Origin: an uncultured Clostridia bacterium
GTDB taxonomy: Bacteria; Bacillota; Clostridia; Oscillospirales; JAAYOS01
Direction of reading: 5' to 3'
Length of the DNA: 64,000 nt
NCBI GenBank assembly: GCA_947631015.1
Contig: CANRJS010000004.1
Location: 48,913-112,912, forward strand
Below the pieces are notes generated by a model, which was given only the letters and a program-made list of their open reading frames with translations, was not told the origin of the DNA and searched no databases. Position 1 is the first letter of the stretch; each line of letters starts with the position of its first letter. The position numbers and the translations under genes were made by a program. This document shows positions 5,608 through 60,243 of the stretch, in pieces.

Positions 5608-6168
5608 ATGAAAAACATCCTGAAACCCCTCCTCCGCGCGCTCCCGCTCGCGCTGATGCTAGCGCTTCTCTGCTGCTCGTGCTTTGCCACCTACGACACG
5701 TCTGCGGAGGTGGACGGCTACACCGTCGACTTTCAAACGGGGCAGATAACCGACGGCGAGAACGTCTACGAGTTCAAATGGAGCGGCGATGAGGACGACG
5801 GCAGCGCGACCGTCACCCTGCCGAACGGACACTACTTCCTGCAAGAGTGGGGTCCTTCCCGCGTAAACGGCGGCATGGGCACCACCACGGTGGACGAGAT
5901 GGATCTGGCGACGACGCTCCCCGACGTCGTGCGCGACGCGCTCCATGCGCGCAAAAATCCCCCTATCCTGCCGCCGCTTCCGTTCATTGTCGCCGGTCTC
6001 GGCGTGCTGCTGATAGCCTATCCCAAAATCTACTGGTACCTCTCCGGCGGTTGGAAGATAAAGGACGCCGAACCGTCGAACGCTTACCTTGCCATAGGCC
6101 GCATCATCGGCGGAATTATCGTCTTTGCCGGAGTTGTCCTGTTTTTTATCAAAATCGGCGGGAGATAA
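5608..6168 (+). CDS. Hypothetical exported/membrane protein (N-terminal signal or lipobox-like LLCCSC, two C-terminal TM helices)
   Basis: ATG 5608 preceded by RBS AAAGGAG. Hydrophobic N-terminus LPLALMLALLCCSCFA and C-terminal hydrophobic stretches. No recognisable domain. Confidence 0.6.
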   Translation: MKNILKPLLRALPLALMLALLCCSCFATYDTSAEVDGYTVDFQTGQITDGENVYEFKWSGDEDDGSATVTLPNGHYFLQEWGPSRVNGGMGTTTVDEMDLATTLPDVVRDALHARKNPPILPPLPFIVAGLGVLLIAYPKIYWYLSGGWKIKDAEPSNAYLAIGRIIGGIIVFAGVVLFFIKIGGR

Positions 6169-6185
6169 TCGCTTGCGCGTCGGCG

Positions 6186-6590
6186 CGAAATGTGCTCGAG
6201 CAATGAATTGCCCTGCGCACCCTTTCGCAATTCCCGCGCGGTCGCCGACCGCGCGGGAGCCCTTTTAATTAACATGCTCGGGGCAAATGAATTGCCCCTG
6301 CGCGATATTGCCTGCGGCAACATCAACCGCGCGAACAGGCGCGGAACAGCGCTACGCGCCGAGTTTTCCGCCTTCGGCGGAAAATCGACGCACGCTCCGC
6401 GAGAGGTGTAAATTTCGACCTACGGTTCGTACAATGTCGGGACGTCGGCGCGAAGCGCCGAGGTCTGATGCGCCCGGTAGAAAGTTGCGGTTCGTAGTCA
6501 GTAGAAGGGCGCATTCGCGCCGCCGAAAATGATTTGAATTTATTTCGCCGCTAACGCGGCGAAACTCTGCGAGGCTGTCGGCGAGCAAAA
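6186..6590 (+). repeat. Intergenic multi-hairpin repeat locus A (half unit, one type-1 unit at 6229-6345, one type-2 unit)
   Basis: Shares the modules AATTCCC-hairpin-GGGAGCCCTT..ATGCTCG-hairpin(loop ATGAA)-TGCGC-hairpin-AACCGCGCGAACAGGCGCGG, TTTTCCGCC-TTCG-GGCGGAAAA and GCGAAACTCTGCGAGGC with loci at 8.3, 12.3, 22.4, 29.3 and 59.3 kb. Confidence 0.85.
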
Positions 6591-6788
6591 CGCCCACCAT
6601 TCCTCTTGCCATGCAGAAAACCCGAACATTCCAAAATTGCCGCACGTTCCGCGCAACGCGCGGCAGTTTTTGTTGTCTATATGTATAGAGAGCTCTTTAC
6701 GCGGCGAAGCCCGTTCCGCAGCCGTTCTTCAACACCCGTTTGAGTCCGTTCCCGGCGGCGCGCGCCGGAAACATGAAAGGAGGCCGCC

Positions 6789-7349
6789 ATGACTGACGAA
6801 GAGATAGTCGCGCTGTACTTCGCGCGCTCGGAGGAAGCCGTCGCCGCAACCGAGCGGCAGTACGGCGCGTACTGCCGCCGCATAGCGCGCACGATACTTC
6901 TTTCCGACGAGGACGCGGACGAGTGCCTCAATGACACTCTGCTCGCCGCATGGCGCTCGATACCTCCGGCAAAGCCCCGGAGCCTCGCCGCCTACCTCGG
7001 ACGGACGGCGCGCAACCTCGCCCTCAACCGCTTCAAGCTGTATTCGGCGCAGAAGCGCGGCGGCAGTGAGACGGCGCTCGCCCTCGACGAGCTCGGCGAC
7101 TGCGTCCCGTCCTCCGGCTCGGTCGAGGAGGAACTGAACGCGGCGCTCCTCTCGGATGCGATATCGCGCTTCCTCCGCGCCGAGCCGGAGGAGAAACGGA
7201 GGGTGTTCGTCCGCCGCTACTGGTACCTCTCCCCTCTCGAGGAGATCGCGGCGGAGTACGGCATGAGCCGCAGCAAACTCACAAGCCTCCTGTACAGGAT
7301 GCGGAAAGACCTGAAGAAATTCCTTGCAAAGGAGGGCTTTCACATATGA
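6789..7349 (+). CDS. RNA polymerase sigma-70 family factor, ECF-type
   Basis: 186 aa with region 2 (CLNDTLLAAWRS) and a region 4 HTH (LSPLEEIAAEYGMSRSKLTSLLYRMRKDL). RBS AAAGGAGG. Confidence 0.85.
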   Translation: MTDEEIVALYFARSEEAVAATERQYGAYCRRIARTILLSDEDADECLNDTLLAAWRSIPPAKPRSLAAYLGRTARNLALNRFKLYSAQKRGGSETALALDELGDCVPSSGSVEEELNAALLSDAISRFLRAEPEEKRRVFVRRYWYLSPLEEIAAEYGMSRSKLTSLLYRMRKDLKKFLAKEGFHI

Positions 7350-8344
7350 AAGAGAACAACAGCGAAGCGATGCTCCGCGCGATAGGCGGCATAGACGACG
7401 ACCTCATACTTTCCGCCGCGCCGGGCGAGCCGAAGCCGCGTCCCGCCCACCGTGTGCGCTTCGTCCGCCGGACGGCGGCGGTGCTCGCGGCGGCGCTGAT
7501 GCTCTCGCTCGCGGGCGTCGGCACGGCGATGGCCGTGAGCGAGGACGTCCGCGAAAGCGTGACCGAGGCCGCCCGAGCCGTCCGAAACGCGGTGCTCCGC
7601 GTCTTCGGCTTCGGCGACCCCGCGCCCGCGAACTCCTCCGACGCACAGAACCGCCGCGACCGCATAGACCGCTCCGACGGCGTCGAACACGCGCGCCTCA
7701 CCGAGCTTCGGAACGAGGCTCAGCTCTGGCTCCGCCAGGAACTCTCCCTCGACGGCGGCATAGACTTTGCCTCAGAGGACTGGTCGGATGCGGACGGCGT
7801 ATACGTCTGCCTGCTCGAACGCCGCCGCGACCCGTCCGCAGGAGAGGCAAGGTCCGAGGGGTACGACTCCCCCGTCCTCGCCGTCGTCGAATGGACGGAG
7901 GACGGCTTCGTCCTCCGCGGTCACACCGGGTTTTCGGAGGCTCCGGACGACGTTGCCGTCGCGGAGACCGAGGACGTCACCGCCGTATTCGGCAGCACCG
8001 CGCCGCTCGACGGCCGCTTTGCGGAACTCACATCCGTCAGCGCCCGGTGCTCGGACGGTTCGGTGCACATCTGCCGGACCTTCGGCGACGGATACTTCTT
8101 CCTTGTCGTGTGGCACACCGAACCGGGCGCGACGCTCGAGCGGATATACGCCTCCGGCGCTCTGAAGGAGCCGGCGACCGTGCCGCATCAGTACGACCGC
8201 ACGCTCGGGCGATACCTCGACGAGACGCAGGTGACCGACGTGACGCTCTGCCGCACCCCCGGCTCGGACACATGGCAGAACTACTGCGCCATAGTCGACG
8301 GCCGCGAGATGTTCTTTGAGCCGTTCATCACACCCGCCCCCTGA
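7346..8344 (+). CDS. Putative anti-sigma factor / single-pass membrane protein
   Basis: Start overlaps the sigma-factor stop (ATGA). Short cytoplasmic N-terminus, one TM helix (AAVLAAALMLSLAGVGTAMA) and an extracytoplasmic region of about 260 aa. No recognisable domain, so the function is inferred from position only. Confidence 0.55.
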   Translation: MKENNSEAMLRAIGGIDDDLILSAAPGEPKPRPAHRVRFVRRTAAVLAAALMLSLAGVGTAMAVSEDVRESVTEAARAVRNAVLRVFGFGDPAPANSSDAQNRRDRIDRSDGVEHARLTELRNEAQLWLRQELSLDGGIDFASEDWSDADGVYVCLLERRRDPSAGEARSEGYDSPVLAVVEWTEDGFVLRGHTGFSEAPDDVAVAETEDVTAVFGSTAPLDGRFAELTSVSARCSDGSVHICRTFGDGYFFLVVWHTEPGATLERIYASGALKEPATVPHQYDRTLGRYLDETQVTDVTLCRTPGSDTWQNYCAIVDGREMFFEPFITPAP

Positions 8345-8657
8345 CGCAATTCCCGCGCGGTCGGCGACCGCGCGGGAGCCCTTCCGATTGAAATGCTCGG
8401 GGCAACTGAATTGCCCCTGCGCAAATTCGGCGCAAAGCGCCGAATTTAACCGCGCGAACCGGCGCGGAGTGCGGCTTCGCCGCGACAGCCTCGCAGAGTT
8501 CGCCGCGTAAGCGGCGAATAGAGTCAAATTCATTTTCGGCGGCGGCGTGTACGTCGCCGAAAATACTTCTCGCGGAGCGCGCGTCGAAGACGGCAACTCC
8601 GTCGAGGCGCGTAGCGCAGCGTTTGCCGTCGGCAAGGCTGCGCCTTATTCGGCGGCC
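8345..8657. repeat. Intergenic multi-hairpin repeat locus B (type-1 unit at 8348-8468 in plus orientation; type-2 unit at about 8470-8657 in minus orientation)
   Basis: Lies between convergent genes. The left half matches loci A, D and E in plus orientation. The right half is the reverse complement of the type-2 module seen at 6346-6590 and 12410-12600. Confidence 0.85.
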
Positions 8658-8716
8658 TCGCGGGAAATTGGTAAGGCGGGCAGACAAAGTCTGCCCGCCT
8701 TACCAATTTCCCGCGA
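8658..8716. terminator. 28-bp perfect-stem hairpin between convergent genes (bidirectional terminator candidate; part of the repeat family)
   Basis: TCGCGGGAAATTGGTAAGGCGGGCAGAC-AAA-GTCTGCCCGCCTTACCAATTTCCCGCGA. Begins 5 nt from the CDF stop codon. A/T runs on both sides. Confidence 0.7.
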
Positions 8717-8720
8717 AAAC

Positions 8721-9590
8721 TTATTTTTCGTAAGGATTGACATGCACCATGCAGTGCTCGACCCGTAGTCCCGCGTCCTCGACGCCCTTGTGGACAGCCT
8801 CCGCTATCCGGTGCGCCTCCCGGAGCGGCATATCCGCGTCCACCGCTATTTCGATGTCCACGAACGCGACGTTCCCGCTTATCCGCGCCCGCAGCTCATC
8901 TACCGCGCGGACACCCTCCGTCGCGAGCGCCACCTCGCGTATCTTCTCAAGCTCCTCGGGCGGAATGCTGCGGTCGGTGAGGCGGCTCATCGCCTCGCGC
9001 AGGATGTCAAACGCCGCCTTGAGTATGAGCACCGAGACGCCTATCGCCGCCACCGGCTCGAGCCACCACACGCCTACCATGTTCCCGCCGACGCCGACGA
9101 GCACCGCCACCGAGCTCACCGCGTCGGTGCGGTGGTGCCACGCGTCCGCCATCAGCGAAAGCGAGTTCACCTTCTTCGCCGCGCGGCGGGTGTAGCGGAA
9201 CATCCACTCCTTTGCCATGATCGAGATGACCGTCACCGCGAGCGCGGCGGCGGACGCCTCCGAGCGCTCGCCGAGCCACAGGCTCCGCGCACCCTCAACG
9301 CCTATCATCACCGCCGTGCCGCCGAGCGCCACTGCAAGCAGCACCGACACGAGGCTCTCTATCCGCTGGTGCCCGTAGGGATGGTCCTCGTCCGCGCTGT
9401 TCGAGGCGAGCCGCAGTCCGAGCAGCACCGCGACGGTCGTCGCGACGTCCGAGACCGTATGTACGCCGTCGCTTATCACCGAAACGCTGTGCGCGAAAAA
9501 TCCCACCGTGAGCTTCACCGCCGCAAGGACGGCGTTCGCTATCATTGTTGTGACCGACACTTTTTTCGCTGTCAGATAGCTGTTTTCCAC
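8721..9590 (-). CDS. Cation diffusion facilitator (CDF) family metal efflux transporter
   Basis: HSVSVISDGVHTVSD and DAWHHRTD metal-site motifs, six TM segments and a C-terminal cytoplasmic domain. I chose GTG 9590 (RBS AAGGAGA 8 nt upstream) over the track's ATG 9749, whose extension is non-hydrophobic and covers the promoter. Confidence 0.85.
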   Translation of the reverse strand: MENSYLTAKKVSVTTMIANAVLAAVKLTVGFFAHSVSVISDGVHTVSDVATTVAVLLGLRLASNSADEDHPYGHQRIESLVSVLLAVALGGTAVMIGVEGARSLWLGERSEASAAALAVTVISIMAKEWMFRYTRRAAKKVNSLSLMADAWHHRTDAVSSVAVLVGVGGNMVGVWWLEPVAAIGVSVLILKAAFDILREAMSRLTDRSIPPEELEKIREVALATEGVRAVDELRARISGNVAFVDIEIAVDADMPLREAHRIAEAVHKGVEDAGLRVEHCMVHVNPYEK

Positions 9591-9720
9591 AGAGAATATC
9601 TCCTTTTCGGACGTTTTGCGCCCGGGCTTGTATCTCCCCGCCCGCGCGTGTATAATACATATATATGCCGCCTCTCCCCGCGCTGACAATACGCCGCGCG
9701 GAAAGCTTTGATTAACGCAT
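9591..9720 (-). promoter_or_regulatory. GC-rich structured 5' UTR of about 130 nt for the CDF gene (candidate metal-responsive leader)
   Basis: Lies between the consensus promoter and the RBS. Contains hairpins CCGCGC..GCGCGG and GCGCGGGC..GCCCGGGCGC. Membership of a known riboswitch class is not verified. Confidence 0.3.
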
Positions 9721-9749
9721 ATTGTATCACATGTCTCCTTCCCTTTCAA
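9721..9749 (-). promoter_or_regulatory. Sigma-A-type promoter for the CDF gene
   Basis: On the minus strand: TTGAAA, 17 nt, TACAAT. Confidence 0.6.
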
Positions 9750-11052: not shown

Positions 11053-12327
11053 ATGTTTATTGACACGGCAAAAATTTCGATACGCGGAGGCGACGGCGGC
11101 AATGGCGCCGTGAGCTTCCACCGTGAGAAGTACGTCGCGGCCGGCGGGCCGGACGGAGGCGACGGCGGCGACGGCGGGAACGTCGTCCTCCGCGTCGACG
11201 ACCACATGGCGACGCTCATGGACTTCCGCTATCAGCGCAAGTACGCCGCCCCGAACGGCGAGAACGGACAGGGCAAGCGATGCTGCGGACGGCGCGGCGA
11301 AGACCTCGTCATCCGCGTGCCGCGCGGCACCGTCGTCCGGGACGCGGAGAGCGGCGCCGTCATGCACGACATGTCGGACGGCGCTGACTATGTCGCGGCG
11401 CGCGGCGGGCGCGGCGGCTGGGGCAACCGCCACTTCGCCACACCCACGCGCCAGACTCCGCGATTTGCGAAGAACGGTCTCAAGGGCGAGGCGCGCGAGA
11501 TCCTGCTCGAACTGAAGCTCATCGCGGACGTCGGCCTTGTCGGCTTCCCGAACGTCGGCAAGAGCACCCTGCTCTCGGTCGTCTCCGCCGCACGTCCGAA
11601 GATAGCAAACTACCACTTCACCACGCTCCAGCCTAACCTCGGCGTTGTGCGCGTGGACGAGACGACGAGCTTTGTCCTTGCCGACATTCCCGGTATAATC
11701 GAGGGCGCGGCGGAAGGTGCGGGTCTCGGCCATGGCTTCCTCCGCCACATCGACCGCTGCCGCCTGCTCGTCCACCTTGTGGACATATCCGGCAGCGAGT
11801 TTCGCGACCCCGTAGAGGACTTCGAGACGATAAACTCGGAGCTTGCCGGATGGAGCGAGGCTCTTGCCTCCCGCCCGCAGATAGTCGCGGCAAACAAGTG
11901 CGACCTCGCGGACGAGACGAACGAGGCGGCGGCGAAGTTCCGCGCCTACGCTTCGGAGCACGGTCTCGAGGTCTACGAGATCTCCGCCGCCACCGGCATG
12001 GGCGTGCAGGCGCTCATATATGCGATAGCGCGCCGCCTCGCCGACCTTCCCCCAGTCGAATACTACGAGCCGGAGTACGTCGAGCCCGAATTTGAGCCCG
12101 GCCGCCCGGAGGACGTCACCGTCCGCCACGAGGACGGCGTTTACATCCTCGAGGGCGACTGGATAGACCGCATCGGCGGAAGCGTCAACTTCGACGACTA
12201 TGAGAGCCGCATGTGGTTTGAACGTATGCTCCGCACGAGCGGGATGTTTGCGCGCCTCGAGGAGATGGGAATACAGGAGGGCGACACCGTCTGTATCGGC
12301 GACTTGGAATTTGAATACCTGCCCTGA
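11053..12327 (+). CDS. obg: GTPase Obg/CgtA
   Basis: 424 aa with a glycine-rich Obg fold (GGDGGNG, GGDGGDGG), G-domain GFPNVGKST and a C-terminal TGS/OCT-like domain. RBS GGAGG. Confidence 0.95.
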   Translation: MFIDTAKISIRGGDGGNGAVSFHREKYVAAGGPDGGDGGDGGNVVLRVDDHMATLMDFRYQRKYAAPNGENGQGKRCCGRRGEDLVIRVPRGTVVRDAESGAVMHDMSDGADYVAARGGRGGWGNRHFATPTRQTPRFAKNGLKGEAREILLELKLIADVGLVGFPNVGKSTLLSVVSAARPKIANYHFTTLQPNLGVVRVDETTSFVLADIPGIIEGAAEGAGLGHGFLRHIDRCRLLVHLVDISGSEFRDPVEDFETINSELAGWSEALASRPQIVAANKCDLADETNEAAAKFRAYASEHGLEVYEISAATGMGVQALIYAIARRLADLPPVEYYEPEYVEPEFEPGRPEDVTVRHEDGVYILEGDWIDRIGGSVNFDDYESRMWFERMLRTSGMFARLEEMGIQEGDTVCIGDLEFEYLP

Positions 12328-12329
12328 CG

Positions 12330-12637
12330 GGCTTCGCGGCGAATCGCGCTCGCTTCGCTCGCTTACCAATTCGCCGCGAAAGCACCGGACAGAGCGGAGC
12401 TCTGCCGGTGCTATGCGCTCCGCTTCGCGCCGAGTTTTCCGCCTTCGGCGGAAAATCGACGCGCGCTCCGCGCAAAGAGTTTTTTCCGACGTACACGCCG
12501 TCGGAAAAAACGGATTTGACTTTATTTCGCGCCGTTGGCGCGAAACTCTGCGAGGCCAATCGGCGCAAAGCGCCGTTTTGGATTTGGCGAAACTCTGCGA
12601 GGCAGGTCAGCGCGCAGCGGCGCTCGTTTACCTGCTT
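12330..12637 (+). repeat. Intergenic multi-hairpin repeat locus C (type-2 modules; GCGAAACTCTGCGAGGC present twice)
   Basis: Contains CTTACCAATTCGCCGCGAAA, CACCGGACAGAGC..GCTCTGCCGGTG, GAGTTTTCCGCCTTCGGCGGAAAATCGACGCGCGCTCCGCG and two copies of GCGAAACTCTGCGAGGC. All are shared with loci A, B, E and F. Confidence 0.8.
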
Positions 12638-14399: not shown

Positions 14400-14648
14400 A
14401 AATAGCGAAAGACCGTGACCGGGAGAGTAACGGCGGAGCGCGCCAAGAGAGGCGGGGTCGTGGGCTGAAAGCCCCGCCGCGAAGCGAAGCCGCGAAGTTC
14501 ACCCGTGAGTCGCGCGGCTGAAAGCCATGCCTGTAGGCCGCGACGTGGGCGCACGTTACAGCGCGGACGAGGGCGCGGAGCATCCCGCGCCGAAGTTGGG
14601 TGGTACCGCGAAGTCTGCCTTCGCCCCAATGCGGGCGGAGGCTTTTTA
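14400..14648 (+). ncRNA. T-box riboswitch leader, Phe-specific
   Basis: Conserved T-box sequence AAGTTGGGTGGTACCGCG at 14593-14610. TTC codon at 14498-14500 in GAAGTTCA (candidate specifier). GTGA (14415-14418) and AGAGTA (14424-14429) stem-I motifs. Terminator GCCTTCGCCC / GGGCGGAGGC at 14617-14642 plus TTTTT. Sits directly upstream of pheS. Confidence 0.85.
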
Positions 14649-14748
14649 TATGCTTTCGCACCGTGACAGAACGCGCGCCGGCCGCGTCTCCGAGGAGGAC
14701 GGAGCCGGCGGAAAGTCGAATGTGCATTACATCACAGGAGGTCATATT

Positions 14749-15768
14749 ATGCAGGAAAAACTTGAGTTTCTGCGCCGCGAAGCGCTCGAAGCGCTCGAGG
14801 CGGCGAAGAATTCCGAGAAGCTGGAGGAGCTGAGGGTCCGCTTCCTCGGCCGCAAGGGTGAGCTGACGGCGATACTGAAGCAGATGGGCTCCCTCAGCGC
14901 CGAGGAGCGCCCGAAGATGGGCGCGCTTGCAAACGACGTGCGCGGCTTCATCGAAAAGGAGCTCGAGGTCCGCGGCAAGGCACTCGCGGAGGAGGCTCTC
15001 GCGCTCAAGCTCGAAAGCGAGCAGGTCGACGTGACGCTCCCCGGCTCGCACCGCGAGCTCGGGCACAAGCATCCGATGACGTCGCTTCTCGACGAGGTGA
15101 AGGAGATCTTCATCGGCATGGGCTTCGAGATAATCGAAGGCCCGGAGGTCGAGACGACCTTCTACAACTTCACCGCGCTGAACACCCCGGAGAACCACCC
15201 GTCCCGCGAGCCGCAGGACACCTTCTATTTCTCCCCCGACGTTCTGCTCCGCACCCAGACCTCGGCGATGCAGGCGAGGTATATGGAGACGCACAAGCCG
15301 CCCTTCCGCATCATCGCCCCCGGCCGCACCTACCGCAAGGACGAGGTCGACGCGACGCACAGCCCGATGTTTCACCAGATAGAGGGTCTTGTCGTCGACA
15401 AGGGGATAAAATTCACCGACCTCAAGGGCACGCTCGACATGCTCTTCAAGAAGATATACGGCGAGGATACGCGCATCCGCTTCCGCCCGCACCACTTCCC
15501 GTTCACCGAGCCCTCCGCCGAGATGGACCTTCAGTGCTTCAACTGCCACGGCGAGGGCTGCCGGATGTGCCACGGCGAGGGTTGGATAGAGATGCTCGGC
15601 TGCGGAATGGTCCACCCGAACGTGCTTCGCATCTGCGGCATCGACCCGGATGAATACTCCGGCTTCGCGTTCGGTCTCGGCACCGACCGCATGGCCATGT
15701 GGCGCTACGGCGTGAGCGACATGCGCCTGTTCTTCGACAACGACATGCGTTTCCTCACGCAGTTTTAA
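14749..15768 (+). CDS. pheS: Phenylalanine--tRNA ligase alpha subunit
   Basis: 339 aa from ATG 14749 (RBS AGGAGG). Class II aaRS motifs present (FRPHHFPFTEPSAE, GFAFGLGTDRMAM). The track ORF start at 14527 lies inside the T-box leader. Confidence 0.95.
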   Translation: MQEKLEFLRREALEALEAAKNSEKLEELRVRFLGRKGELTAILKQMGSLSAEERPKMGALANDVRGFIEKELEVRGKALAEEALALKLESEQVDVTLPGSHRELGHKHPMTSLLDEVKEIFIGMGFEIIEGPEVETTFYNFTALNTPENHPSREPQDTFYFSPDVLLRTQTSAMQARYMETHKPPFRIIAPGRTYRKDEVDATHSPMFHQIEGLVVDKGIKFTDLKGTLDMLFKKIYGEDTRIRFRPHHFPFTEPSAEMDLQCFNCHGEGCRMCHGEGWIEMLGCGMVHPNVLRICGIDPDEYSGFAFGLGTDRMAMWRYGVSDMRLFFDNDMRFLTQF

Positions 15769-20316: not shown

Positions 20317-21162
20317 ATGCGTTTTACCAAGATGCACGGCTGCGGCAACGACTATATATACGTTGACTGCTTCCATGAGAAGGCAGACGTGCAAAATCCC
20401 GAACAGCTCTCAAGGCGGCTGAGCGACCGCCACTTCGGAGTAGGCTCGGACGGCCTTATCTTCATCAAGCCTAGCCCCGTGGCGGACTGCTTTATGGATA
20501 TGTACAACTACGACGGACCGCGCAGCGAGATGTGCGGCAACGGCATCCGCTGCGTCGGCAAGTACCTCTACGACCACGGCATCGTCGACCGCGACGTCAT
20601 AACTGTCGACACGCTCGCGGGCGTCAAGACCCTCTACCTGCACATCGAGAACGGCGTCTGCACCGGCGCGACCGTCGACATGGGCGAGCCGATACTTCTC
20701 CCGCAGATGATACCCACCGAGCTTCACGGCAGCGACGGACGCGCTGTCGACGTCCCGCTTGACGCGGACGGCGTCACCTACCGCGTCACCTGCGTGTCTA
20801 TGGGGAACCCCCACGCCGTCGTCGTCGTGGACGACCCCGCGTCCTTCCCCGTCCGCGAGGTTGGAATGCGGATAGAGACGCACCCCGCCTTCCCCCGCCG
20901 CACCAACGTCCACTTCATCCGCGCGGAATCGCGCGACAGCATCATCATCCGCACATGGGAGCGCGCCACCGGCGAGACGCTCGCCTGCGGCACCGGCAAC
21001 TGCGCCTCCCTCGTCGCGGCGACGCTGCTCGGACTCTCGGACGGCGAGGCGGAGATGCACTGTCTCGGCGGCACGCTCCACATCAAGTGGGACAGAAACG
21101 ACAACCACGTCTACATGACCGGCCCCGCCGTCGAGGTGTTCTCCGGCAGCATAGACGTCTGA
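20317..21162 (+). CDS. dapF: Diaminopimelate epimerase
   Basis: 281 aa with MRFTKMHGCGNDYIYVD, the two catalytic Cys motifs (MCGNGIRC, LACGTG) and SMGNPH. Confidence 0.93.
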   Translation: MRFTKMHGCGNDYIYVDCFHEKADVQNPEQLSRRLSDRHFGVGSDGLIFIKPSPVADCFMDMYNYDGPRSEMCGNGIRCVGKYLYDHGIVDRDVITVDTLAGVKTLYLHIENGVCTGATVDMGEPILLPQMIPTELHGSDGRAVDVPLDADGVTYRVTCVSMGNPHAVVVVDDPASFPVREVGMRIETHPAFPRRTNVHFIRAESRDSIIIRTWERATGETLACGTGNCASLVAATLLGLSDGEAEMHCLGGTLHIKWDRNDNHVYMTGPAVEVFSGSIDV

Positions 21163-21197
21163 ACCTCAAAAACATCCCTTGGTCAGGAGGAAAATCA

Positions 21198-22403
21198 ATG
21201 AAACTGAATGACAACTTCCGCAAGATGCAGTCAAACTACCTCTTCTACACCGTCCGCGTCAAGACGAACGAGTACCTTGAGAGCCACCCCGGCGCCGAGG
21301 TCATACGCCTCGGGATAGGAGACGTCACGCTCCCGCTCGTCCCCGCCGTCATAGACGCGATGCATGCCGCCGTCTCGGACATGGGCAGCGCCGCCACCTT
21401 CAAGGGCTACGGCGAGGACTTCGGCTACTCCTTCCTCCGCCGCGCGATAATCGAGCAGGACTACAAGCCGCTCGGCGTCGACCTCGCGCTCGAGGAGGTC
21501 TTTATCAACGACGGCGCGAAGAGCGACACCGGCAACTTTGCGGAGCTCTTCGACCGCGACAACGTCGTCGCCGTCTGCGACCCGGTCTACCCCGTCTACG
21601 TCGACTCGAACGCCATGGCCGGCCGCGCCGGCGACTTTGACGGCGAGCGTTGGAGTAAGCTCCTCTACATGCCCTGCGTCGCCTCGAACGGCTTCATTCC
21701 GGAGCCGCCGAAGGAGCATGCGGACATCATCTACCTCTGCTTCCCGAACAACCCGACCGGCGCTCACATCGGCTACGACGAGCTGAAGGCGTGGGTCGAC
21801 TACGCCCTCCGCGAGGGCTCGGTCATACTCTATGACGCGGCCTACTGCGCCTTCATCGAGGGCGACATGCCCCGCTCGATATACGAGATAGACGGCGCGA
21901 AGCGCTGCGCCGTCGAGTTCCGGAGCTACTCCAAGACCGCCGGCTTCACCGGCGTGCGCTGCGGCTTCACCGTTGTACCGAACGACCTCGTCTTCTACGG
22001 GCAGAGCCTCCGCGCGATGTGGGCGCGCCGCCAGACCACGAAGTTCAACGAGGCAAGCTATATCTCCCAGCGCGGCGCGGCGGCGATATACACGCCGGAG
22101 GGCGCAAAGCAGGCCATGGAGTCTATCGCCTACTACAAGAACAACGCAAAGACCCTCCGCGAGGGACTTCAGGCGCTCGGCTTTGAGGTCTACGGCGGGG
22201 TACATTCCCCCTACGTCTGGCTCGCGACGCCGAACGGCATGACCTCGTGGGAGTTCTTTGACGCACTGCTCGACCGCGCGCAGGTCGTCGGCACCCCCGG
22301 CTCGGGCTTCGGGCCGTGCGGCGAGAGCTACTTCCGCCTCACGAGCTTCGGCACGCTCGAAAACTCGCTCCGCGCGCTCGAGCGGATAAAGGAAAGCTTC
22401 TAA
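21198..22403 (+). CDS. dapL: LL-diaminopimelate aminotransferase (DapL-type)
   Basis: 401 aa from ATG 21198 (RBS AGGAGG). SYSKTAGFTGVRCG PLP-lysine motif and the N-terminal N.N....SNYLF pattern. Adjacent to dapF. The track ORF start at 20955 overlaps dapF and is rejected. Confidence 0.85.
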   Translation: MKLNDNFRKMQSNYLFYTVRVKTNEYLESHPGAEVIRLGIGDVTLPLVPAVIDAMHAAVSDMGSAATFKGYGEDFGYSFLRRAIIEQDYKPLGVDLALEEVFINDGAKSDTGNFAELFDRDNVVAVCDPVYPVYVDSNAMAGRAGDFDGERWSKLLYMPCVASNGFIPEPPKEHADIIYLCFPNNPTGAHIGYDELKAWVDYALREGSVILYDAAYCAFIEGDMPRSIYEIDGAKRCAVEFRSYSKTAGFTGVRCGFTVVPNDLVFYGQSLRAMWARRQTTKFNEASYISQRGAAAIYTPEGAKQAMESIAYYKNNAKTLREGLQALGFEVYGGVHSPYVWLATPNGMTSWEFFDALLDRAQVVGTPGSGFGPCGESYFRLTSFGTLENSLRALERIKESF

Positions 22404-22404
22404 G

Positions 22405-22620
22405 TTTCGCTTCGCGTCGACGCGAAATGTGCTCGGGCGCAATGAATTGCCCTGCGCACCCTTTCGTAATTCCCAAACGCTCCAAAGGAGCGTTTGGGAG
22501 CCCTTCCGATTAAAATGCTCGCCGGAAATGAATTCCGGCTCCGCGAAGTTGGCGGCAAAGCCGCCAACTTCAACCGCGCAAACCGGCGCAGCGCAGCCGC
22601 AGGCTGCGTAGAAGGCAGGA
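22405..22620 (+). repeat. Intergenic multi-hairpin repeat locus D (half unit plus type-1 unit at 22468-22590)
   Basis: The first ~50 nt, GCGAAATGTGCTCG..CAATGAATTGCCCTGCGCACCCTTTCG.AATTCCC, are near-identical to 6187-6235. The hairpin stems differ from other copies but remain paired. Confidence 0.85.
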
Positions 22621-26053: not shown

Positions 26054-29233
<3,180 letters not shown>

Positions 29234-29259
29234 ACCGCTTATTACCTCTTTTCTTCATA

Positions 29260-29315
29260 CTCCCCCAACAGGAAGAACCGCGGGCACAAGCCCGCGGTTC
29301 TTCCTGTTGGGGGAG
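29260..29315. terminator. 26-bp perfect-stem hairpin after lacZ
   Basis: CTCCCCCAACAGGAAGAACCGCGGGC-ACAA-GCCCGCGGTTCTTCCTGTTGGGGGAG. No strong T-run follows. Confidence 0.6.
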
Positions 29316-29562
29316 TTGCCCCAAACGGCGCTCTGCGCCGTTTGGGGACCCCTTTAATTTAAATGCTCGGGGCGAATGAATCGCCCCTGCGCGATTTCGT
29401 CGCTGTGCGGCGAAATCACCGCGCGAACCAGCGCGGTCGCCGCTCACGCGGCGAAACTCTGTAGGGTTTCGTGAAAAATCACGCGGGCAAAGCCGCAATT
29501 CCTAAACGCTCAGTTGGAGCGTTGGGATCCCTTTTGATTGAAATTTTCGGGGCAATTCAGCA
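29316..29562 (+). repeat. Intergenic multi-hairpin repeat locus E (type-1 unit at 29317-29436, GCGAAACTCTG module, truncated second type-1 unit at 29497-29562)
   Basis: CCCC-AAACGGCGC-TCT-GCGCCGTTT-GGGG..AAATGCTCG-GGGGCGA-ATGAA-TCGCCCC-TGCGC.. and AATTCCT-AAACGCTC..GAGCGTT-GGGATCCCTTTTGATTGAAATTTTCG-GGGC. Confidence 0.85.
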
Positions 29563-29596
29563 AAAAATGATGCTTTACGTCCACAGCAAATCCCGA

Positions 29597-30211
29597 TCAG
29601 CAGATAATATCTCGCCGGTCTCCCCGAATCAATACGACTTGCCCGTCGGACAATTCTATCGGGCCGTTTTCGGATATTGCCTGACAACAGTTTTCCCGTT
29701 CGGCGTGCGGTATCAGCGGGTTGGATAAGTATCCCAATCCGTCGGCGAAATTCCCGGCGGCAACCATGCTTCCCGCGCTGATCCCCAGATATACCAGCCC
29801 GTTCTCTATCGCCTGCTTCAAAGGCTTGGAGAAGCCTGTTCTGTTTATTTCTCTCAAAAGGGTCGAAGCGTTTCCTCCGCAAAAAGCAATAAAGTCATAC
29901 CGGGAAAGCTCTTCGGCACTCATCAAGCGGATCTGCACGGGGATGTCCTCTACATAATCGGAATATGTCCTTTTATAGCCGTCGGAAAGCAAAAGCGCCA
30001 GATCATATATCAAAATATTACTTACAGCTATCCCCATGCTTTGAAGTCTTTCCAGACATACGATAATGCCCTCCCGCGCGCTGTCGCTTCCGATGGCGGC
30101 AGTCGGGACGAAGCTCGCCTTTGTATGTCGGGGTTCCTTCCCGATACATTCCCAAAACAGCTTGGCAGTCCTTTCATTCAGACCGTTTGAACTTAAAAAC
30201 AGAGTTCTCAT
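29597..30211 (-). CDS. Peptidase S51 (dipeptidase E-like) family protein
   Basis: 204 aa from ATG 30211 (RBS GGAGGTGA). YLGISAGSMVA nucleophile-elbow motif typical of S51. Visibly lower G+C than neighbouring genes. Confidence 0.7.
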   Translation of the reverse strand: MRTLFLSSNGLNERTAKLFWECIGKEPRHTKASFVPTAAIGSDSAREGIIVCLERLQSMGIAVSNILIYDLALLLSDGYKRTYSDYVEDIPVQIRLMSAEELSRYDFIAFCGGNASTLLREINRTGFSKPLKQAIENGLVYLGISAGSMVAAGNFADGLGYLSNPLIPHAERENCCQAISENGPIELSDGQVVLIRGDRRDIIC

Positions 30212-30290
30212 TGTCCTTCTCACCTCCCGTAAAGCAGATACCTCGAAGGCGCGCCGTTCGGTTTCACCGCCGGTTTTGCCGCCAATGGAC

Positions 30291-30791
30291 TTACCTCCCG
30301 CCCAGCTCAAATGACGCTATCTCCCTTGTGGGCCAGAAGGCGCATAAATGCAGTCGGACGATATTTCCGACAAACGGGCAAAACGACCGCACGAACAGCG
30401 GCAGCGCGGAGCAGACCGCTTCCGGCTCGTCTATCAGTACCGTGACATGCGGCGTCCACACGCGTTCCGTATCTGTTTCGCACGCGTCGTGGAGCGCGTC
30501 CAACTGCGCGTTTCTTTCGGGCGCGGCAAAAAGCACCTTTCCTCCGGCGAACATGCCGATATGGCTGATGTGGACCGGAACTGCCGGGAATTCGGCAGCA
30601 GCTTTTTTCATCAAACCGACGACTTCATCCTCCCGCTCAAGCGGAAACGTAGCCAAGCTGATGTGATAAGGAAGCCCCGGCGTCTGTGTTCCGACGAATC
30701 CCGCTTCTTTCAGTGCGCCGTACCATTCGGACAGGCGCTTTTGCGAGATCTCGTCCAAATCCGCCATGAGAGTCAAAAATTCTTCCACCAT
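30291..30791 (-). CDS. 2H phosphoesterase superfamily protein (LigT / 2'-5' RNA ligase-like)
   Basis: 166 aa with two H-x-S/T-x motifs (HISL and HVTV) at the spacing expected for the 2H fold. Confidence 0.65.
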   Translation of the reverse strand: MVEEFLTLMADLDEISQKRLSEWYGALKEAGFVGTQTPGLPYHISLATFPLEREDEVVGLMKKAAAEFPAVPVHISHIGMFAGGKVLFAAPERNAQLDALHDACETDTERVWTPHVTVLIDEPEAVCSALPLFVRSFCPFVGNIVRLHLCAFWPTREIASFELGGR

Positions 30792-59060: not shown

Positions 59061-59205
59061 GTGTTTTTTTCTAACTTTTCTCAAGCGATATGTAAAAAAA
59101 GAGGTTTTTTCGTAGAGATTTCCGTAATCCAAAACACTTGTTCGTATCTCTCCCGTACATACATACGATTTTGACGTCTGCCTCCCCACACTTTTCCGCA
59201 AGCCA

Positions 59206-59241
59206 AAAACAGCCCGGACGGTTTCCCGTCCGGGCTGTTTT
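59206..59241 (-). terminator. Rho-independent terminator upstream of the mraZ promoter
   Basis: AAAACAGCCCGGACGG-TTTC-CCGTCCGGGCTGTTTT, with T-runs in both orientations. Confidence 0.8.
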
Positions 59242-59344
59242 AAGTCTGTTGAAAAGCCTCGTAGAGTTCGCCGCCGCAGACGGAGAACTCTGGTTCAATC
59301 AGTTTTTCGGCGCCATACGCCCGCGAACCTTTACCACATTCAAC

Positions 59345-59747
59345 TTTCTACGCCGCCAAGGGCGACGTCCGCGCCTGTTCGCGCGGTTAAAGTTGCTTGC
59401 CGCAGGCAAGCAACTTTGCGAAGCCCCGATTCATTCGGGGCGAGCATTTCAATCGGAAGGGCTCCCACGCGGTCACCGACCGCGTGGGAATGCGTCGATT
59501 TTCCGCCGAAGGCGGTTCCGCGCCTGTTCGCGCGGTTAAAGTTGCTTGCCATAGGCAAGCAACTTTGCGGAGCCCCGATTCATTCGGGGCGAGCATTTCA
59601 ATCGGAAGGGCTCCCACGCGGTCACCGACCGCGTGGGAATTGCGTAGCGGAGCGTTGCCACCGGCAGAGCGAAGCTCTGTCCGGCTGTCTCGCGGGAAAT
59701 TGGTAAAGGAGCGGGCTTTTGCCCGCTCCTGCGATTTCCCGCGAAAA
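59345..59747 (-). repeat. Intergenic multi-hairpin repeat locus F: two tandem type-1 units (59370-59491 and 59519-59641, 149-bp period) plus a large-hairpin module (59690-59747), all in minus orientation
   Basis: The reverse complement reads AATTCCC-ACGCGGTC-GGT-GACCGCGT-GGGAGCCCTTCCGATTGAAATGCTCG-CCCCGA-ATGAA-TCGGGG-CTCCGCA-AAGTTGCTTGCC..GGCAAGCAACTT-TAACCGCGCGAACAGGCGCGGA. The unit is duplicated with only a few substitutions. Confidence 0.9.
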
Positions 59748-59783
59748 TTTTTCTGAAAAGTCCTAACGGACTTTTCAGAAAAA
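59748..59783 (-). terminator. Rho-independent terminator directly after the coiled-coil protein gene
   Basis: TTTTTCTGAAAAGTCC-GTTA-GGACTTTTCAGAAAAA on the minus strand, starting 1 nt after the TAA stop and followed by TTTTCG. Confidence 0.8.
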
Positions 59784-59784
59784 T

Positions 59785-60243
59785 TTAATTTTTGCTTGCG
59801 TTCTTGAAGCTCCCGCGTGAGGTCTTGACCTCGCCGAGTGCTTCCTCGAGCGCCTCCTGAGCACGGGCAAGCGCGTCGTCGACATACCTGTTGGTGGCGA
59901 TGCGCAGCTCCTTGCTCTTCTGCTCGGCGGCGTTCACTATCTCGCTTGCCTTCTGTCGCGCCGCGATGACGACCTCGTCGCGGCTGACCATCTGACGCGC
60001 GCGCTCCTCAGCGGCGCGCTTTATGGCGTCCGCCTCGCGCTTGGCGGAACCGCTTATCTCATTCTTGGTCGCCACGATATTGCGGGCCTGCTCTATCTCG
60101 GAGGGCAGTCTGTTCTCGATATCCTCGATAAGCTCCAGCACCTGGGCGCGGTCAATGACGCATTTTGCCCTTCCGAGCGAAAATCCGTCCTGCACCGCGT
60201 TTTTGAGCAGCTCCAAAAGTTCATCTACGTCATGACCGGCCAT
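59785..60243 (-). CDS. Coiled-coil protein of unknown function (often annotated ATPase / ATP synthase subunit b or H-like)
   Basis: 152 aa, highly charged and heptad-rich (..AKREADAIKRAAEERARQM..AEQKSKELRIATNRYVDDALARAQEALEEAL..). Confidence 0.7.
   Translation of the reverse strand: MAGHDVDELLELLKNAVQDGFSLGRAKCVIDRAQVLELIEDIENRLPSEIEQARNIVATKNEISGSAKREADAIKRAAEERARQMVSRDEVVIAARQKASEIVNAAEQKSKELRIATNRYVDDALARAQEALEEALGEVKTSRGSFKNASKN

Follow-up and report, generated by a model that had tools for sequence, protein, structure and literature searches.

Repetitive extragenic palindromes (REPs) are bacterial repeats that lie preferentially downstream of genes. Briefly, a REP is a palindrome of 20–40 bp, one end of which directly bears the tetranucleotide GTAG or CGTC. 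Ribosome stalling has been reported for REPs located ≤15 nt from stop codons. BOX, RUP and SPRITE repeats have a similar downstream bias. Here, we describe elements with the same bias in 64,000 nt of DNA (the window; ~62% G+C) from an uncultured Clostridia bacterium. Our subject is the 372-base spacer at positions 8345–8716 (locus B), which is a single copy of a mosaic hairpin repeat family. A sequence-only reading of this spacer had proposed that every repeat unit shares the orientation of the gene ending beside it, and that the units act within 3′ untranslated regions (UTRs).

The elements are built from two kinds of module, type-1 and type-2. They are best classified as a new family of mosaic repeats, specific to one lineage and of the REP, BOX and bacterial interspersed mosaic element (BIME) kind. 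Near-absolute anchoring at stop codons and a mixture of polar and non-polar modules set it apart. The reading that we favour, and consider reasonably probable, is that a polar, stop-anchored type-2 scaffold is combined with non-polar type-1 filler, and that these hairpin mosaics are not intrinsic terminators. The family is specific to a lineage of uncultured gut Clostridia; we infer the functions proposed for it below.

Locus B combines opposed type-1 and type-2 modules

Genes in the window were mapped by codon usage and Pfam. Locus B lies between an open reading frame (ORF) at 7346–8344 (+), which has no match in Pfam, and a CDF transporter gene at 8721–9749 (−; Pfam Cation_efflux). Self-comparison bore out the coordinates and orientations given in the sequence-only reading. 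Hence, a plus-strand type-1 half is followed by the reverse complement of the type-2 module found at window loci A and C. The gene labels of that reading also hold by Pfam (Cation_efflux, Obg, class I/II aminotransferase and GH2 β-galactosidase).

A type-1 unit is ~125 nt long. It consists of AATT, hairpin H1, the linker AGCCCTTCCGATTGAAATGCTCG, hairpin H2 with the loop AATGAAT, TGCGCRA, hairpin H3, TYAA and hairpin H4. Stems occur as a few discrete alleles that are freely combined; those of H2, for example, include GGGGC/GCCCC, GCCCC/GGGGC, GGCGG/CCGCC and GCCGG/CCGGC. At locus B the unit occupies 8345–8468 (+), directly 3′ of the TGA of the 7346–8344 ORF, and was identified by self-comparison, motif and hidden Markov model (HMM). 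The hairpins are at 8351–8377 (H1), 8399–8417 (H2), 8423–8447 (H3) and 8450–8467 (H4). The conserved linker, GGGAGCCCTTCCGATTGAAATGCTCG, is at 8374–8399 (+).

The type-2 scaffold comprises hairpins P1 and P2, then modules 2b, 2c and 2d. The outer arms of P1 (TCGCGGGAAAT...ATTTCCCGCGA) covary and enclose a variable inner part, and P1 folding energies are mostly −20 to −75 kcal/mol. P2 is GCCGCCGG-A-CAGAGC...GCTCTGCCGGCGGC, with a conserved bulged A, and is followed by ACGCTCCGCTACGC. The HMM for module 2a spans the 3′ arm of P1 and P2, up to ACGCTCCGCTACGC. At the 3′ end, 2d terminates in GAAACTCTGCGAGGC. The locus B scaffold was identified by self-comparison and HMM, and occupies 8470–8716 (−). 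Here, P1 is a long perfect hairpin with a 28-bp stem (8658–8716) that starts 4 nt past the CDF stop codon (8721–8723, −). It is followed on the same strand by 2a with the bulged hairpin P2 (8609–8671), 2b (8568–8611), 2c (8522–8569) and 2d (8487–8527).

We interpret locus B as a minus-strand scaffold anchored on the CDF stop codon. The type-1 unit would be an inverted copy at the distal end of this scaffold, abutting the stop codon of the plus-strand gene by chance. The arrangement recurs in L010, L072 and L063 (L numbers denote loci fetched from related genomes), and is found between co-directional genes in L079, L046 and L073. Hence, the opposed halves described in the sequence-only reading are present, but they do not depend on a convergent gene pair.

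Homology with locus A reaches 10 nt into the 7346–8344 ORF (8335–8344, CGCCCCCTGACGCAATT, compared with 6216–6225, CGCACCCTTTCGCAATT). The last three codons and TGA overlap the repeat, and the ORF therefore ends within repeat sequence. ORFs 5′ of the type-1 arrays in L044 and L058 have called ends 16 nt inside the first repeat unit. The Pfam domains of Obg and of the CDF protein extend to the C-terminus, which indicates that these genes are not truncated by the repeats. An exact-protein look-up of the CDF ORF, for which the start codon was probably wrongly chosen, returned no record. The best match to the CDF protein in a metagenome scan was 45% identical.

The repeat family recurs in related genomes

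Self-BLAST connects all six window loci, which are spacers A (6169–6600), B (8345–8716), C (12328–12580), D (22404–22620), E (29259–29557) and F (59191–59786). The type-1 core motif has 7 matches in the window against 0 expected, and the repeat family that the sequence-only reading had described is real. A scan of a genome collection with the type-1 core identified at least 81 loci, from three rabbit-gut uncultured Clostridia metagenome-assembled genomes (MAGs) among the matches listed. The window is from a sister genome of these MAGs, with syntenic genes 90–93% identical. Family-wide counts cover the window and the 81 loci listed. Here, there are 152 HMM matches to type-1 and 40–61 copies of each type-2 sub-module. 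As a negative control, 355 kb of unrelated metagenome DNA gave no module match.

Locus B had no match in plasmid and phage collections. At gathering thresholds, Rfam 15 recognised only a T-box leader in the whole window, and in E-value mode the region 6100–8800 gave only sub-threshold, generic long-hairpin microRNA models. The T-box, together with ~62% G+C, makes an origin of the window in Bacillota probable. Literature searches by motif string returned chance primer matches only.

To describe composition, spacers were annotated as oriented module strings. The canonical order is 2a-(1a 1b)n-2b-2c-2d, of which L006, L071, L038, L048 and window loci C and F are examples. The value of n is zero at window locus C, one in L006 and L071, and two in L038 and window locus F. 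Three-unit type-1 arrays occur in L017, L030 and L079. Overall, up to about three type-1 units are present, or more where they are partial; they lie within the scaffold or next to it and can point either way.

With fixed 5′ and 3′ modules and variable internal units, the elements resemble pneumococcal BOX repeats (boxA-boxB(n)-boxC), which have fixed terminal modules and variable internal units. BOX repeats also form tight hairpins, are over-represented between convergent genes and vary in unit number among strains or species. Unlike BOX, to which they have no sequence similarity, our elements have no visible terminal inverted repeats: there is no complementarity between TTCGCGGGAAATCGC at the 5′ end and GAAACTCTGCGAGGC at the 3′ end. 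In addition, internal units may occur inverted or on their own. Anchored at stop codons, the 5′ module is strongly polar, and the passages on BOX consulted describe no comparable anchoring.

Element-bearing spacers have a median length of ~550 nt, compared with 27–157 nt for others. In four independent same-species assemblies, contigs end ~30–35 nt past the obg stop codon, inside the type-2 repeat (L083, at 32 nt; L084, L085 and L086). Hence, the family fragments short-read assemblies. A look-up of the Obg protein found same-species contigs only, several of which end in the repeat. For annotation, the consequence is that the elements fill most long spacers of the lineage, break assemblies and overlap some ORF ends.

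Type-2 scaffolds are polar and type-1 units are not

Only spacers between co-directional genes are informative about orientation. Of the window loci, A, D and F qualify, and all three are co-oriented (3/3, one-sided p = 0.125). The spacers of loci B, C and E are convergent, and there any orientation 'follows' some gene. The sequence-only reading had named orientation statistics of copies relative to flanking genes as a check, and we compiled these for the 81 loci listed from the three related genomes. Between co-directional genes, type-2 modules are strongly biased. The ratio of co-oriented to anti-oriented copies is 16 : 3 for 2a (p = 0.004; 14 : 3 after orthology deduplication), 10 : 2 for 2b, 7 : 0 for 2c and 16 : 1 for 2d. 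In convergent spacers, 2a is nearest to the co-oriented gene in 29/30 copies (25 : 1 deduplicated). Taken together, 50/59 scorable copies of 2a share the orientation of the gene 5′ of them. Relative to the stop codon of the abutted gene, type-2 is sense in ~90% of scorable copies.

Type-1 units behave differently from type-2. Between co-directional genes, module 1a is co-oriented in 20 cases and anti-oriented in 15. Orthology deduplication leaves 16 : 9, with two ortholog clusters discordant. For arrays consisting of type-1 only the ratio is 7 : 9. Furthermore, type-1 orientation flips at orthologous sites (L043 compared with L079, and L052 compared with L076). We conclude that the orientation rule is half right: type-2 is polar and type-1 is non-polar. 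Hence, the claim that all units are co-oriented with the preceding gene is upheld for type-2 and refuted for type-1. One mosaic family can join a strictly polar module with a non-polar one, and orientation statistics for whole elements may mislead.

These data bear on the full claim of the sequence-only reading, under which every unit of either type would work in 3′ UTRs in a strand-specific manner, as a terminator, stabiliser or binding site, and would therefore always be oriented like the upstream gene. The six loci of the window all agree with the claim. Type-1 units that abut a stop codon (≤30 nt) are co-oriented in 10 cases and anti-oriented in 2, several being orthologous duplicates. Where a scaffold is co-resident, type-1 shares its orientation 44 times and opposes it 11 times. 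Against this stand the type-1 ratios above, the flips at orthologous sites and the lack of any G-U excess on the strand of the unit itself (described below). We regard the full claim as very unlikely. Action in 3′ UTRs, as deduced from co-orientation, is supported for the type-2 scaffold, which is sense in ~90% of cases with terminators lying distal to it; it is not supported for type-1, for which orientation is random outside the window.

Replication strand was considered as a cause of orientation and rejected. Opposed scaffold pairs, each anchored on its own gene, occupy the convergent spacers L005 and L024, and GC skew in the window is uninformative. The skew is negative in nearly every 2-kb bin, without a change of sign, and does not track gene strand. 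Window genes are mostly on the plus strand before ~30 kb and mostly on the minus strand after ~36 kb.

Elements are also unevenly distributed among spacer classes. Of convergent spacers 61% contain them, compared with 12% for the tandem class and 15% for the divergent class (chi-square p = 2e-18). Since possession of elements was the basis on which loci were fetched, only the contrast between classes is meaningful.

Scaffolds begin at stop codons

In 43 copies, a co-oriented gene is followed by 2a as the first module. In 42 of these, the strong hairpin P1 starts between −3 and +8 nt from the stop codon (median ~2 nt). Stop codons before 2a are TAA in 25 cases, TAG in 14 and TGA in 5, compared with 115, 70 and 211 for other genes (Fisher p = 5e-4). 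Hence, TAA or TAG precedes 39/44 copies, against 47% elsewhere, and the second base of the stop codon is A in 88% of cases, against 52%. Coding sequence upstream of the abutted stop codon is not conserved, which places the repeat boundary at the stop codon. A fraction of REPs also lie ≤15 nt from stop codons. The difference is one of degree: ~98% of scaffolds abut a stop codon compared with roughly 11–50% of E. coli REPs. Near-absolute anchoring of a very stable hairpin in this position, with its preference for TAA and TAG, goes beyond this reported fraction.

Five copies of 2a are in divergent spacers, and all are co-oriented with the downstream gene, in its 5′ leader. Four of the five start 2–18 nt past a perfect TATAAT, usually TGnTATAAT. 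For one leader copy (L078), the orthologous empty site in L047 keeps the promoter. Placement of P1 at stop codons or past −10 boxes means that type-2 is almost always sense in a transcript. At L048 6985–7393 (−), a promoter-like module (TGGCATAT...TGnTATAAT) is present in triplicate, once ahead of a type-2 scaffold and twice between the scaffold and the gene. The first two copies are each followed by a small hairpin, AGCCGC...GCGGCT. Hence, the promoter region is itself repeated.

The reading that we favour has type-2 elements placed with P1 within a few nt of the stop codon of a same-strand gene or, more rarely, just past a −10 box in a 5′ leader. They may be non-autonomous selfish DNA that persists in the transcribed but untranslated stretch right after ORFs. 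As RNA, such chains of very stable hairpins could plausibly block 3′-to-5′ exonucleases. P1 would sit within the footprint of the terminating ribosome, and may affect translation termination or the fate of the mRNA. By analogy with REPs near stop codons, P1 might stall ribosomes.

A stronger proposal is that type-2 is more than tolerated junk and forms a stop-anchored, sense-polar 3′-UTR cassette behind roughly one gene in ten, either placed by a reader of ORF ends or with its P1 co-opted genome-wide. We consider this doubtful. If it were true, a P1 that starts within the footprint of a terminating ribosome could link the end of translation to the decay of mRNA or to the rescue of ribosomes. 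The anchoring poses a question: do the hairpins act on terminating ribosomes, or is insertion directed by stop codons?

The main rival is insertion that is specific in orientation and involves no RNA function. Here, an enzyme would insert the scaffold 3′ of a TA(A/G) target. In a GC-rich genome, stop codons and −10 boxes would supply this target on the sense strand, and co-orientation would be a by-product. This would explain the stop codon bias without a role for RNA. Strand-specific insertion had been named as the alternative in the sequence-only reading, and gains some support from the TAA/TAG bias of abutted stops. The preference for A at the second base of the stop codon agrees with it, as do leader copies that follow TATAAT...TAG, a repeat boundary at the stop codon with no conserved ORF sequence before it, and stems in which G-U is not above A-C. 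The rival fares less well at the junction itself, since the spacer from stop codon to P1 varies from 0 to 8 nt without a fixed junction, five copies follow TGA, and the filled and empty sites at L078 and L047 reveal neither a target duplication nor defined ends. No transposase was found in 0.66 Mb, although this is a weak test. Finally, TTA and CTA on the sense strand of the AT-richer spacers should provide antisense targets too. Hence, the ~90% bias and the near-exclusive use of stop codons would still need selection. We judge insertion alone to be possible but rather unlikely.

MITEs (miniature inverted-repeat transposable elements) such as RUP and Correia are relevant to this comparison. 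Like them, our elements are short, non-coding, multi-copy, intergenic and lineage-restricted, and the TA-containing stop codons at the junction recall MITEs that target TA. Unlike MITEs, they have no detectable terminal inverted repeats or, in the one filled/empty pair, target-site duplication, and their internal composition is highly variable. In tblastn searches of 0.66 Mb of incomplete genomes, approximate IS200/IS608 TnpA queries gave no match with E < 0.1, which is a weak test. Large uncalled gaps adjoining elements were considered as sites of transposases, and this was rejected: the gaps hold an OLD/AAA_15 nuclease and a sodium:solute symporter instead. The former is an OLD-family/AAA_15 ATPase-nuclease gene at L054 3382–5412 (+), which is defence-like, has atypical codon usage and lies a few hundred bases from a type-1 array.

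Elements probably lie within transcripts rather than at their ends

The sequence-only reading had suggested a terminator role. A pattern scan of 8345–8716 detected no hairpin followed by a T-run on either strand. Among 73 element regions, such sites occur in 15 on the sense strand and in 29 on the antisense strand. Terminator-like sites were found ≤150 nt downstream of 23/73 regions. Some ten of the 23 combine a long GC stem with a good T-run, and two further cases come from window loci A and C. Where canonical terminators are present they are distal to the elements (for example, window 6649–6663, 12561–12575 and ~59201–59240). Distal terminators, together with the copies in leaders, indicate that the elements lie inside transcripts and not at their ends. 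Sense copies are also found between promoters and genes. We conclude that a terminator role is unlikely.

A variant of this idea is that P1 or other hairpins are 'I-shaped' terminators without a U-tract, as proposed for GC-rich bacteria, and that the rest of the element is untranscribed filler. P1 is very stable and immediately 3′ of the stop codon, the elements are enriched between convergent genes, and SPRITE repeats are a precedent. SPRITEs, too, are interspersed repeats that lie near the 3′ ends of coding regions, with strong enrichment in convergent spacers. Unlike our elements, which are multi-hairpin mosaics of 200–700 nt, mostly without T-runs, a SPRITE is a single 18-bp terminator-like stem followed by a U-rich tract. 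Termination by P1 is difficult to reconcile with locus B, which has no hairpin and T-run on either strand, or with the excess of antisense over sense T-run sites. It is also at odds with the clear canonical terminators distal to elements in at least a dozen loci, with sense copies between a −10 box and a downstream gene, and with copies between closely spaced co-directional genes (for example, window locus D). Nor would it account for the polarity of modules 2b to 2d. Hence, we think I-shaped termination highly improbable.

Several points weigh against the reading that we favour. Transcription through the elements is deduced from position. Three 2a copies are past a canonical terminator (L067, L009 and L081), which shows that residence in transcripts is not absolute, and three are anti-oriented between co-directional genes (L019, L020 and L030). 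The fetched loci were chosen for the type-1 motif and are from sister species rather than the genome of the window. Genes were called by our own codon-usage model, which misses foreign genes such as that at L054 3382–5412. Simple tolerance of insertions does not account for tight anchoring at stop codons or for the TAA/TAG bias. Finally, no transposase and no clean insertion footprint were found in the DNA examined (0.66 Mb; one filled/empty pair). The single L078/L047 pair has ragged junctions, with 7 nt replaced and no clean target duplication.

Stems are maintained as perfect DNA palindromes

In 76 full-length type-1 copies, 98.4% of stem cells are paired. This falls to 82.7% in shuffled alignments and to ~40% when partners are slid. 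Both sides have changed in 23 of 34 stem pairs. A strand-specific RNA would tolerate G-U pairs and avoid A-C; this signature is absent from 1a, 2a, 2c and whole type-1 units. Counts of G-U and A-C cells are 13 and 8 in 1a, 28 and 21 in 2a, 3 and 2 in 2c, and ~15 and 12 in whole type-1 units. G-U makes up ~0.6–2% of stem cells and is no commoner than A-C. Hence, neither strand is favoured, as expected of DNA palindromes. We conclude that the stems are maintained as perfect palindromes at the level of DNA.

Orthologous copies illustrate how the elements evolve. In type-1 copies with flanks 85–95% identical, H1 is kept while H2 and H3 alleles differ (window locus E compared with L022, and L001 compared with L003). 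Orthologs also contain different numbers of type-1 units, and members of two ortholog clusters disagree in orientation. Swapped H2 and H3 alleles, together with differing unit number, point to recombination within the conserved linkers. Copies therefore evolve by swapping of hairpin cassettes and by change in unit number between orthologous loci. Across the units as a whole, unpaired columns are no more conserved than paired columns. Several copies of P1 have been 'perfected' in either arm (window 8658–8716, L025, L024, L041 and L042). Perfected arms are a signature of quasi-palindrome correction by template switching.

These properties bear on whether the type-2 scaffold is a structured functional RNA, either a cis-acting 3′-UTR or leader element or a small RNA with its own promoter, with conserved linkers recognised by a protein or RNA. 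Strict sense polarity is consistent with this possibility. So too are the conservation of linkers and of the AATGAAT loop while stems covary, the conserved bulged A of P2, and copies that begin a few nt past TGnTATAAT boxes. The rarity of G-U, the overall lack of extra conservation in unpaired columns and the absence of any Rfam family match argue against it. Moreover, modules are freely added, lost and reordered, and a few discrete stem alleles are shuffled among copies, as predicted by recombination rather than stepwise covariation. A functional RNA is, in our view, an improbable explanation, and we prefer a mosaic DNA repeat with a polar scaffold.

Such a repeat has much in common with REPs and BIMEs of Enterobacteria and Pseudomonas, including the REPINs mobilised by RAYT (IS200/IS605-type Y1) transposases. 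Both are GC-rich extragenic palindromes, mostly 3′ of ORFs, arranged in mosaics with conserved linkers. The differences are in detail. No GTAG/CTAC or CGTC/GACG abuts the stems in the consensus of H1–H4, P1 or P2, and the sole recurrent CTAC is 10–12 nt 3′ of P2, in ACGCTCCGCTACGC. The module strings contain no alternating REP units; our units are co-linear rather than alternating head-to-head, as in BIMEs, and only whole type-1 units are inverted. No RAYT was found in the 0.66 Mb available, a weak test with approximate TnpA queries.

Other window loci and neighbouring genes

Locus A is a plus-strand composite at 6169–6600, identified by self-comparison and HMM. It contains a P1-variant 5′ part (6169–6235), a type-1 unit (6227–6345), 2b (6350–6404), an unrelated insert and 2d (6534–6576). 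A terminator-like hairpin with a T-run is 3′ of the composite (6649–6663). Locus D, at 22404–22620 (+), lies between the class I/II aminotransferase gene (20955–22403) and a Peptidase_M42 gene. Like locus A, it opens with a P1-variant 5′ part (22404–22470), and in both a type-1 unit is set into that part (22466–22591 at locus D).

Locus C is a plus-strand scaffold without a type-1 unit (12328–12580), directly 3′ of the stop codon of obg (11053–12327, Pfam). Its modules are 2a (12366–12428), 2b (12421–12475), 2c (12475–12521) and 2d (12516–12556), with a terminator-like site at 12561–12575.

Locus F is a minus-strand composite at 59191–59786. In order, it contains an AT-rich hairpin at the stop codon (59745–59786), P1 (59690–59744), 2a (59642–59703), two type-1 units (59517–59643 and 59368–59492) and 2d (59255–59296). 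The inverted repeat at 59191–59256 holds a terminator-like hairpin with a T-run (~59201–59240, identified by direct inspection of the sequence), which lies beyond the array and upstream of the mraZ promoter.

A short motif, GTAGAA(A/G)G, is present just beyond the type-1 units of loci D (22605–22612), F (59336–59343, −) and A (6478–6485), where it is preceded by a small hairpin. This motif, the sole GTAG-like tag seen, may represent an additional module.

Locus E, at 29259–29557 (+), follows the GH2 β-galactosidase gene (26057–29233, Pfam). A P1-like long hairpin (29259–29316) is followed by a type-1 unit (29320–29436) and a 2d-like tail (29437–29471). The sequence-only reading had not counted a Peptidase_S51 gene at 29597–30310 (−; Pfam), the presence of which makes this spacer convergent. 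A partial type-1a unit at 29494–29557 (+) is 40 nt from the stop codon of this gene, and is therefore anti-oriented to the nearest gene end. Comparison of window 29458–30288 with L022 1280–1591 revealed that the Peptidase_S51 gene, and a stretch of lower G+C (~56–58%, 30–32 kb), are absent from the orthologous site in MAG CANRIN. Hence, an indel adjoins locus E.

The T-box leader recognised by Rfam is at 14406–14631 (+; 93.5 bits), upstream of a pheS-pheT pair. The called pheS ORF (14527–15768) shares its first ~105 nt with this leader, and the true start codon of pheS is therefore probably further downstream.

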